A stretch of DNA of 2,565 nucleotides from Escherichia phage MCn10, in sequence record OP745094.1, one strand, 5' to 3'. A program made the translations under genes and the position numbers. How positions within the stretch are numbered: the first letter of the stretch is position 1; each line of letters opens with the position of its first letter. This document shows positions 1-2,565 of the stretch, in pieces. The notes under the pieces were generated by a model. It searched no databases. It saw nothing but the letters and a program-made list of their open reading frames with translations, and was not told where the DNA came from.

Positions 1-2565
1 ATGAAAATTGCGGTGGTGGATAAAGCGCTGAACAACACCCGCTATGATAAACATTTTCAGCTGTATGGCGAAGAAGTGGATGTGTTTCATATGTGCAACG
101 AAAAACTGAGCGGCCGCCTGCTGAAAAAACATATTACCATTGGCACCCCGGAAAACCCGTTTAACCCGAACGATTATGATTTTGTGATTCTGGTGGGCGC
201 GGAACCGTTTCTGTATTTTGCGGGCAAAAAAGGCATTGGCGATTATACCGGCAAACGCGTGGAATATAACGGCTATGCGAACTGGATTGCGAGCATTAGC
301 CCGGCGCAGCTGCATTTTAAACCGGAAATGAAACCGGTGTTTGATGCGACCGTGGAAAACATTCATGATATTATTAACGGCCGCGAAAAAATTGCGAAAG
401 CGGGCGATTATCGCCCGATTACCGATCCGGATGAAGCGGAAGAATATATTAAAATGGTGTATAACATGGTGATTGGCCCGGTGGCGTTTGATAGCGAAAC
501 CAGCGCGCTGTATTGCCGCGATGGCTATCTGCTGGGCGTGAGCATGAGCCATCAGGAATATCAGGGCGTGTATATTGATAGCGATTGCCTGACCGAAGTG
601 GCGGTGTATTATCTGCAGAAAATTCTGGATAGCGAAAACCATACCATTGTGTTTCATAACCTGAAATTTGATATGCATTTTTATAAATATCATCTGGGCC
701 TGACCTTTGATAAAGCGCATAAAGAACGCCGCCTGCATGATACCATGCTGCAGCATTATGTGCTGGATGAACGCCGCGGCACCCATGGCCTGAAAAGCCT
801 GGCGATGAAATATACCGATATGGGCGATTATGATTTTGAACTGGATAAATTTAAAGATGATTATTGCAAAGCGCATAAAATTAAAAAAGAAGATTTTACC
901 TATGATCTGATTCCGTTTGATATTATGTGGCCGTATGCGGCGAAAGATACCGATGCGACCCTGCGCCTGCATAACTTTTTTCTGCCGAAAATTGAAAAAA
1001 ACGAAAAACTGTGCAGCCTGTATTATGATGTGCTGATGCCGGGCTGCGTGTTTCTGCAGCGCGTGGAAGATCGCGGCGTGCCGATTAGCATTGATCGCCT
1101 GAAAGAAGCGCAGTATCAGCTGACCCATAACCTGAACAAAGCGCGCGAAAAACTGTATACCTATCCGGAAGTGGTGCAGCTGGAAAAAGATCAGAACGAA
1201 GCGTTTAACCCGAACAGCGTGAAACAGCTGCGCGTGCTGCTGTTTGATTATGTGGGCCTGACCCCGACCGGCAAACTGACCGATACCGGCGCGGATAGCA
1301 CCGATGCGGAAGCGCTGAACGAACTGAGCACCCAGCATCCGATTGCGAAAACCCTGCTGGAAATTCGCAAACTGACCAAACTGATTAGCACCTATGTGGA
1401 AAAAATTCTGCTGAGCATTGATGCGGATGGCTGCATTCGCACCGGCTTTCATGAACATATGACCACCAGCGGCCGCCTGAGCAGCAGCGGCAAACTGAAC
1501 CTGCAGCAGCTGCCGCGCGATGAAAGCATTATTAAAGGCTGCGTGGTGGCGCCGCCGGGCTATCGCGTGATTGCGTGGGATCTGACCACCGCGGAAGTGT
1601 ATTATGCGGCGGTGCTGAGCGGCGATCGCAACATGCAGCAGGTGTTTATTAACATGCGCAACGAACCGGATAAATATCCGGATTTTCATAGCAACATTGC
1701 GCATATGGTGTTTAAACTGCAGTGCGAACCGCGCGATGTGAAAAAACTGTTTCCGGCGCTGCGCCAGGCGGCGAAAGCGATTACCTTTGGCATTCTGTAT
1801 GGCAGCGGCCCGGCGAAAGTGGCGCATAGCGTGAACGAAGCGCTGCTGGAACAGGCGGCGAAAACCGGCGAACCGTTTGTGGAATGCACCGTGGCGGATG
1901 CGAAAGAATATATTGAAACCTATTTTGGCCAGTTTCCGCAGCTGAAACGCTGGATTGATAAATGCCATGATCAGATTAAAAACCATGGCTTTATTTATAG
2001 CCATTTTGGCCGCAAACGCCGCCTGCATAACATTCATAGCGAAGATCGCGGCGTGCAGGGCGAAGAAATTCGCAGCGGCTTTAACGCGATTATTCAGAGC
2101 GCGAGCAGCGATAGCCTGCTGCTGGGCGCGGTGGATGCGGATAACGAAATTATTAGCCTGGGCCTGGAACAGGAAATGAAAATTGTGATGCTGGTGCATG
2201 ATAGCGTGGTGGCGATTGTGCGCGAAGATCTGATTGATCAGTATAACGAAATTCTGATTCGCAACATTCAGAAAGATCGCGGCATTAGCATTCCGGGCTG
2301 CCCGATTGGCATTGATAGCGATAGCGAAGCGGGCGGCAGCCGCGATTATAGCTGCGGCAAAATGAAAAAACAGCATCCGAGCATTGCGTGCATTGATGAT
2401 GATGAATATACCCGCTATGTGAAAGGCGTGCTGCTGGATGCGGATTTTGAATATAAAAAACTGGCGGCGATGGATAAAGAACATCCGGATCATAGCAAAT
2501 ATAAAGATGATAAATTTATTGCGGTGTGCAAAGATCTGGATAACGTGCGCCGCATTCTGGGCGCG
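1..2565 (+). CDS. Family A DNA polymerase with 3'-5' proofreading exonuclease domain, T5-like phage replicative polymerase; 855 codons, no stop codon within the window
   Basis: Frame +1 is open from ATG at 1-3 to the last base with no in-frame stop. Manual translation shows exonuclease motifs: Exo I in VAFDSETSAL (D164/E166, nt 490-498), Exo II in HNLKFD (D224, nt 670-672), Exo III in YAAKDTDAT (Y312/D316, nt 934-948). Polymerase motifs: motif A in WDLTTAEVYY (D527, nt 1579-1581; E532, nt 1594-1596), motif B/O-helix RQAAKAITFGILYG (nt 1762-1803; compare E. coli Pol I RRSAKAINFGLIYG), motif C in MLVHDSVV (H733-D734-S735, nt 2197-2205). The 855-aa length and the N-terminal MKIAVVDKALNN... sequence match my recollection of phage T5 DNA polymerase; not verified by search. 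Gene symbol left blank because I am not certain of the T5 gene name. Confidence 0.93.
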   Translation, partial: MKIAVVDKALNNTRYDKHFQLYGEEVDVFHMCNEKLSGRLLKKHITIGTPENPFNPNDYDFVILVGAEPFLYFAGKKGIGDYTGKRVEYNGYANWIASISPAQLHFKPEMKPVFDATVENIHDIINGREKIAKAGDYRPITDPDEAEEYIKMVYNMVIGPVAFDSETSALYCRDGYLLGVSMSHQEYQGVYIDSDCLTEVAVYYLQKILDSENHTIVFHNLKFDMHFYKYHLGLTFDKAHKERRLHDTMLQHYVLDERRGTHGLKSLAMKYTDMGDYDFELDKFKDDYCKAHKIKKEDFTYDLIPFDIMWPYAAKDTDATLRLHNFFLPKIEKNEKLCSLYYDVLMPGCVFLQRVEDRGVPISIDRLKEAQYQLTHNLNKAREKLYTYPEVVQLEKDQNEAFNPNSVKQLRVLLFDYVGLTPTGKLTDTGADSTDAEALNELSTQHPIAKTLLEIRKLTKLISTYVEKILLSIDADGCIRTGFHEHMTTSGRLSSSGKLNLQQLPRDESIIKGCVVAPPGYRVIAWDLTTAEVYYAAVLSGDRNMQQVFINMRNEPDKYPDFHSNIAHMVFKLQCEPRDVKKLFPALRQAAKAITFGILYGSGPAKVAHSVNEALLEQAAKTGEPFVECTVADAKEYIETYFGQFPQLKRWIDKCHDQIKNHGFIYSHFGRKRRLHNIHSEDRGVQGEEIRSGFNAIIQSASSDSLLLGAVDADNEIISLGLEQEMKIVMLVHDSVVAIVREDLIDQYNEILIRNIQKDRGISIPGCPIGIDSDSEAGGSRDYSCGKMKKQHPSIACIDDDEYTRYVKGVLLDADFEYKKLAAMDKEHPDHSKYKDDKFIAVCKDLDNVRRILGA

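Follow-up and report, generated by a model that had tools for sequence, protein, structure and literature searches.

Where does the chain of a family A DNA polymerase end, and what does it form when it continues beyond that point? The question is raised by a stretch of 2,565 nucleotides from the record OP745094.1 of Escherichia phage MCn10 (hereafter the window), which encodes a DNA polymerase of the kind found in bacteriophage T5. The first-pass annotation, made from the letters alone, had described its last 75 residues as a C-terminal extension that would contribute to processivity without accessory clamp proteins. From the analysis reported here it is probable that residues from about 788 to 855 are the known extension of T5 DNA polymerase (T5 Pol), a folded helical subdomain located beyond the usual family A end, which adds contacts keeping the primer-template at the polymerase site. 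As the feature was characterised by experiment as early as 2004, the observation is correct but not new, and, the role of the tail having been reported since then, its confirmation adds nothing fundamental. The additions are modest: a boundary at about residue 788, a division of the tail into two layers, a helical module that seems to be autonomous and has a fold unseen elsewhere, and the existence of natural T5-like polymerases lacking this module.

The encoded polymerase and its canonical end

In frame 1 the window is open throughout, giving 855 codons and no stop, and each amino acid is written with one codon only (for example, all 76 leucines are CTG and all 57 alanines are GCG). Compared with the native T5 gene, it shows 77% identity at the DNA level versus 99% at the protein level, and starts with ATG instead of TTG. 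Given this codon use and this disparity, the window DNA is a back-translated copy of the polymerase protein; hence it carries nothing biological at the nucleotide level, the information resides in the protein alone, and the open reading frames (ORFs) on the other frames and strands are meaningless. The protein is identical to RefSeq YP_006950 (T5 DNA polymerase; NC_005859, 71097-73664) at 847 of 855 positions, with eight differences besides the TTG start, and differs from it at 2 of the 75 positions of the C-terminal tail (D815E and R850K). It presumably corresponds to an older deposited version of T5 polymerase, UniProt P19822. Compared with the polymerase of bacteriophage T5 (gene D7-D9/pol) it is the same protein, with no biological difference. 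A full-length polymerase at least 90% identical to it is present in 441 phage records, and the tail alone finds 100% identical matches in several T5-like phage polymerases (tblastn against phages).

The domain composition is that of a family A enzyme, with a Pfam PF01612 3'-5' exonuclease at residues 137-331 (136.2 bits, gathering cut-off 23.6) and a PF00476 family A polymerase at residues 369-760 (223.9 bits, gathering cut-off 34.3). Furthermore, the AlphaFold model matches structures of the Klenow fragment in a Foldseek search (E = 4e-35, template modelling (TM) score 0.84 on the target). At the C-terminal end of the palm, the T5-like clade is recognised by GGSxDYSCGK followed by L-x-K-x-[YFH]-P-x-h-A, and both elements are found here; judged by its sequence, the protein is a family A polymerase of the T5-like clade (Demerecviridae). 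In the native T5 genome the gene lies in the order primase, pol, small ORF and helicase D10. The features on which the question of the C terminus depends are the following, in window coordinates:

2197..2205, + strand: motif C, catalytic HDS, residues 733-735, aligned to HDE 881-883 of E. coli DNA polymerase I (Pol I)
2302..2361, + strand: final element of the canonical palm, residues 768-787 (PIGIDSDSEAGGSRDYSCGK), put forward as the counterpart of Pol I PLLVEVGSGENWDQAH and T7 LLDTEGKMGPNWAICH
2341..2565, + strand: tail span of the first-pass annotation, residues 781-855, from the translation and tblastn
2362..2394, + strand: core part of the extension, common to the clade, residues 788-798 (MKKQHPSIACI), with the consensus L-x-K-x-[YFH]-P-x-[ILV]-A-x-[ILV]
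2395..2565, + strand: lineage-variable distal helical module, residues 799-855, with predicted helices at 801-811, 816-824, 831-834, 839-844 and 846-854

The frame-1 translation confirms both the position assigned to motif C and the continuation of the chain to residue 855. A full-length search yielded 120 cluster representatives of T5-like polymerases (49-99% identity), and conservation was read from 115 T5-like polymerases, among which H733, D734 and S735 are invariant. It had also been claimed that family A enzymes typically end about 45 residues past motif C, and this agrees with the 45 residues counted in E. coli Pol I (which ends at 928) and the 49 in T7 gp5, versus 120 in the protein under study, therefore giving an excess of 71-75 residues. 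This agrees with the 'unique C terminus' of T5 Pol studied by Andraos, Tabor and Richardson in 2004, which exceeds T7 gp5 and Pol I by about 71 residues. The span 781-855 reads RDYSCGKMKKQHPSIACIDDDEYTRYVKG...KDLDNVRRILGA, exactly as quoted earlier.

The position at which this excess begins is less sharply defined. The Pfam PF00476 match ends at residue 760 (profile position 361 of 381), the Klenow alignment reaches residue 748 (position 573 of 605) and, in the profile of T5-like polymerases, the last aligned Pol I residue, L910, corresponds to T5 I762; by extrapolation, these three alignments would place the canonical terminus at about residue 780. Compared by eye, NWDQAH at the end of Pol I, NWAICH at that of T7 and DYSCGK of T5 each show an aromatic residue followed, four positions on, by a basic one, and a hand alignment pairing W924...H928 of Pol I and W700...H704 of T7 with Y783...K787 of T5 sets the canonical end at 787. 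Automatic alignment of the last 20 residues was unreliable, since the ends of Pol I and T7 stayed unaligned in hmmalign and H928 came to lie opposite Y783 in MAFFT; because of this disagreement at the extreme C terminus the canonical boundary was kept at 780-787. From the motifs we infer that K787 is the canonical terminus, equivalent to the C-terminal His of Pol I and T7. In the T5-like polymerases G779, S780, Y783 and K787 are invariant, and D782 and G786 are conserved in at least 90%. The true extension would thus start at about residue 788, with an uncertainty of some seven residues (781-788). Of the extension originally drawn at 781-855, the part from 788 to 855 stands, whereas residues 781-787 (RDYSCGK) are probably the canonical C-terminal element of family A; the opposite interpretation, in which the tail is a conserved family A element, therefore applies in part, to those seven residues only.

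A tblastn search with residues 781-855 retrieved 544 phage records, 528 of them at a coverage of at least 80%, and among the matches listed every annotated one lies under a polymerase gene or polymerase fragment.

Predicted fold and distribution of the tail

In the AlphaFold model of the full-length protein (mean predicted local distance difference test (pLDDT) 91, predicted TM score 0.87) the tail is modelled with a pLDDT of 84-95 (means of consecutive 10-residue blocks: 94, 95, 95, 92, 92, 84, 91 and 90; 94-95 within the segment 788-798), and seven short helices are predicted, namely 787-791, 793-796 and those listed above for the distal module. Independent BFVD models agree (TM 0.95). When the tail was modelled alone, from 31 tail sequences, residues 791-855 had a pLDDT of about 79-92 and residues 781-790 fell to 68. 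The tail is therefore predicted by these models to be a folded, all-helical subdomain and not a loose charged tail; in addition, they suggest an autonomously folding distal module and a proximal segment that needs the polymerase core to become ordered.

The earlier description of the tail as rich in Asp, Glu and Lys is only weakly borne out: charged residues account for 40% of the tail versus 26% of the rest of the protein (Fisher p = 0.014), with no significant enrichment when the acidic ones are taken by themselves (p = 0.23). The net charge is 0 for the whole tail and -3 for the distal module. An intrinsically disordered acidic tail, of the type found at the C-terminus of T7 gp2.5 and gp4, was considered and is ruled out by the tail pLDDT and by the net charge of 0. 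A zinc-binding Cys/His module was likewise rejected: C785 is conserved in 99 of 115 sequences, the position of C797 holds Cys in 17 of 115, H792 is usually replaced by Tyr or Phe, and at the column of C843 Cys does not rank with the four commonest residues. With C785 as the only conserved candidate ligand, a zinc site is unlikely.

The homology search of the tail alone, proposed earlier as a check, gave matches confined to T5-like polymerases, apart from one spurious repeat protein. No Pfam family, PDB fold or viral fold relative of residues 781-855 was detected outside T5-like polymerases, and the only PHROG matched was that of the polymerase. A profile of the tail searched against 1.84 billion representatives gave four matches, to T5-like polymerases and the spurious protein, with no eukaryotic or non-polymerase homologue among them. 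The protein in question (P0123, 750 aa, E = 3.5e-4) was rejected, its four matches falling on 'ADPEFT' within its own repeats. It is highly repetitive, with repeats of about 150-160 aa containing 'YGQADPEFTATVSG', and shows that repeats can inflate whole-sequence E-values.

Across the T5-like polymerases, tail length, counted as the residues after the DYSCGK motif, is 10-14 residues in 58 of the 120 representatives, 15-30 in 7 and 40-92 in 55, the value for T5 being 68. The segment 788-798 is found in every T5-like polymerase examined and makes up the whole tail of the short-tailed relatives; within it K790 is conserved in 90 of 115 sequences, P793 in 112 and A796 in 94. Beyond this segment, the residues best kept within the T5 type are a DDPEF-type N-cap start, D825, K826 and a group formed by K844, D845, N848 and R851, located in and just before the last helix. 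On the evidence of these alignments, the tail is made of two layers, a clade-wide segment (788-798) and an optional, variable module (799-855).

Three types of distal module have been seen, namely T5/Providencia, Vibrio Ceto/Rocket24 and Vibrio D302. In profile-profile comparisons the T5 type is homologous to the module of Providencia and Proteus phages (probability 96.6% over 61 columns) and has only the first helix in common with the type of Vibrio phage D302 (77% over 18 columns); no relation to the Vibrio Ceto/Rocket24 type could be detected (3%). As for the enzymes lacking the module, the gene of one short-tailed polymerase (P0040, 802 aa) is complete, lies well within a contig of 114 kb and has T5-like neighbours (a split NAD-ligase, an HNH endonuclease, a ResIII helicase, PhoH and ribonucleotide reductase). 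The distal module was not found as a separate ORF near a short-tailed polymerase in a profile search of the six-frame ORFs of at least 30 aa in a 12.4-kb locus, in which the only match was to the DYSCGK segment of that polymerase itself.

It is quite possible, although we would stop short of calling it probable, that the two layers differ in age: the 11-residue extension would define the T5-like clade and perhaps be the real primer-holding element, and the slot behind it would have received unrelated small helical modules, or nothing, in different lineages. Were this so, the short-tailed marine enzymes would be natural deletions of the whole distal module, able to show whether clamp-free processivity needs it or whether the modules instead adjust processivity or the binding of partners, each to its own replisome. 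In any case, these natural short-tailed enzymes provide a ready comparison panel, and the map obtained here (probably canonical up to K787, clade-invariant at 788-798, with a separable module at 799-855) is a sharper one for engineering and for a future structure.

Proposed function and competing explanations

T5 polymerase is a textbook replicative family A enzyme, processive and strand-displacing as a single polypeptide. In passages of later papers that cite Andraos 2004, T5 Pol is described as highly processive (PMC3201878), as losing strand displacement once its extended C terminus is removed (PMC3303844) and as belonging to the small number of replicative polymerases able to unwind long duplexes with no helicase present (PMC12230644); a further passage ascribes long-chain synthesis without accessory proteins to an intrinsic domain of T5 Pol (PMC3821027). 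These passages, from papers citing Andraos, Tabor and Richardson 2004, support the statement, made in the first-pass annotation, that the T5 extension aids clamp-free processivity. Engineered replisomes and also genome editors make use of the enzyme (PMC8284885, PMC13243474). In one such case an attempt to build a replisome with T7 Pol failed, the active site of that enzyme being too near the place where the linker joins its C terminus; T5 Pol was taken instead, and the fusion was made to its C terminus (PMC8284885). This choice fits a canonical terminus lying at the active site and a T5 tail that serves as a spacer domain.

On the anatomy described above, a deletion of 24 residues from the C terminus would take out 832-855, that is the last two helices with the conserved region of K844, D845, N848 and R851, and a deletion of 63 residues would take out 793-855, cutting into the invariant segment 788-798. 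Andraos, Tabor and Richardson are said to have found in 2004 that the first of these deletions lowers activity about 30-fold and abolishes processivity and strand displacement, and that the second lowers polymerase activity about 20,000-fold and raises double-strand exonuclease activity about 7-fold; reportedly, they proposed that the C terminus raises the affinity for DNA of the polymerase site. These phenotypes, as reported, fit the two-layer anatomy.

Pol I and T7, in which His928 and His704 are the last residues, exemplify the normal situation in family A, where the chain ends at the polymerase active site. T5 is like them in carrying an aromatic and a basic residue four positions apart (Y783...K787 in place of W...H), and unlike them in that the putatively equivalent position is internal, is a Lys and not a His, and is followed by 68 further residues. 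Work by Kumar, Tabor and Richardson in 2001 reportedly showed that His704, at the end of the T7 chain, touches the primer strand near its 3' end and controls the partition between polymerase and exonuclease; this terminal residue is said to govern processivity as well, which is the same class of phenotype as that of the T5 tail truncations. In the mechanism that we favour, the T5 chain would pass the proposed primer-contacting position K787 rather than ending there, continuing through the 11-residue basic/hydrophobic segment common to T5-like polymerases and then through the 57-residue helical module. Contacts made by both would keep the primer-template seated at the polymerase site, and this may result in higher processivity, in strand displacement without clamp, thioredoxin or helicase, and in less transfer of the primer to the 3'-5' exonuclease. 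Direct contact of the tail with DNA is a part of this scheme that we infer.

Some observations weigh against this mechanism. The tail is not basic overall, and its distal module is even slightly acidic, unlike what would be expected of a simple tail binding DNA non-specifically. The distal module is absent altogether from about half of the clusters of T5-like polymerases and is therefore not required for the replicative function of the clade in general. Moreover, no T5 Pol structure is present in the PDB copies searched, in which the best match is Klenow at 26% identity.

A different role for the distal module, rather unlikely to be its main one, would be the docking of T5 replisome proteins (helicases D6, D10 or D2, primase, the single-stranded DNA-binding protein D11 or the T5.123 product, encoded just downstream), its effect on synthesis in vivo arising from the assembly of the complex. 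The acidic character of residues 799-855 would suit this role, as would their restriction to one lineage, with unrelated sequences in their place in Vibrio-phage relatives, as expected of a co-evolving interface. The polymerase gene is also flanked by primase and helicase genes, with its stop codon overlapping the GTG start of T5.123, and replisome contacts in T7 rely on short terminal tails. On the other hand, processivity and strand displacement belong to the purified single polypeptide, so that no partner protein is needed for the known phenotype, and strand displacement is lost on C-terminal truncation according to a passage in PMC3303844. Docking and the holding of DNA are, besides, not mutually exclusive.

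Still less likely is a tail that chiefly braces the palm and fingers, the truncation phenotypes then reflecting a destabilised or misfolded polymerase domain. Residues 781-790 are modelled with confidence only within the whole enzyme (pLDDT 94 versus 68 alone) and therefore pack on the core, and activity reportedly drops most with the deletion that reaches into the invariant segment 788-798; however, the truncated enzyme is said to keep and even gain exonuclease activity, arguing against global misfolding, and natural enzymes ending directly after residue 798 show that a stable core does not depend on the distal module. The possibility that the tail is an artefact, due to read-through, to fusion with the downstream ORF or to a sequencing error in the deposited protein, could be suspected from a window that is a synthetic back-translation without a stop codon. 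It is refuted by the native T5 genome, in which the same continuous ORF ends in ...RILGA followed by TGA, by the 528 phage records that match the tail at a coverage of at least 80%, and by its in-frame retention in divergent relatives, and we regard its probability as negligible. The holding of the primer-template by residues 788-855 is retained as the preferred explanation.

Among other polymerases, the nearest functional analogue of the T5 tail appears to be the C-terminal extension (CTE) of the yeast mitochondrial polymerase Mip1, which, like T5 Pol, is a single-subunit, processive and strand-displacing family A enzyme (PMC3303844). The Mip1 CTE sets the balance between synthesis and degradation and, as in the T5 tail, its conservation is highest beside the polymerase domain and drops distally (PMC3303844). 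It differs in being eukaryotic and 279 residues long, and the likeness is one of analogy, the profile search with the T5 tail giving no sequence relation and no direct comparison having been made. More generally, the T5 tail stands with the thioredoxin-binding domain of T7 gp5, TPR2 of phi29 and the proposed uracil-DNA glycosylase (UDG)-like N-terminal domains as one of the routes to clamp-independent processivity (PMC3201878). The T7 device is an insertion in the thumb that recruits a host protein, whereas that of T5 is a terminal extension of the palm within one polypeptide.

N-terminal domain, possibly interrupted genes and neighbouring ORF

The opposite end of the protein also carries an extension, ahead of the exonuclease domain:

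1-390 of the window: N-terminal extension, residues 1-130, pLDDT 77-94, with mixed strands and helices

No Pfam match was obtained for residues 1-130, and the only PHROG matched is that of the polymerase. This 130-residue domain of T5 Pol has been proposed to be UDG-like and a possible intrinsic processivity factor (PMC3201878), and the tail therefore need not be the sole processivity device. Mutations allowing escape from Borvo include the T5 Pol residues I63, F223 and T320 (preprint 10.1101/2022.08.27.505566).

In some relatives the polymerase gene may not be continuous. In Proteus phage VTCCBPA139 (MN935203.2; positions 1-3282 of locus L006) the polymerase is annotated as three coding sequences:

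1-1353: N-terminal part
1605-2390: hypothetical protein of 261 aa
2452-3282: tail-bearing C-terminal part of 276 aa

This arrangement suggests a split or interrupted gene, perhaps due to the insertion of an intron or a homing endonuclease. Likewise, BFVD holds a 274-aa 'DNA polymerase' of Providencia phage PR1. Other T5-like polymerases are about 360-400 residues longer (P0038, 1217 aa; P0054, 1251 aa; Gostya9, BFVD A0A2U8UWY8, 1214 aa). P0038 and P0054 contain Pfam intein (PF14890) and LAGLIDADG (PF03161) domains, and an intein in the Gostya9 polymerase is a guess made from length alone.

Downstream of the polymerase, at positions 13658-13665 of locus L008 from the native T5 genome, the stop codon overlaps by 8 nt the GTG start of T5.123 (GTGCTTGA), a hypothetical gene of 165 aa. 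In slur09, in the Klebsiella and Providencia phages and in two of three Vibrio phages (Ceto and D302) this small ORF likewise comes after the polymerase, and translational coupling of the two genes is possible.

Finally, a word-index search with the tail only returned a single fragment of 91 aa (P0001), labelled Enterococcus faecalis. Both this fragment and OR847493.1 (2768 bp, labelled Listeria phage LM 4-11-1) are T5-type polymerase fragments, 96-97% identical, whose occurrence under the names of Gram-positive hosts or phages is probably due to contamination or mislabelling.

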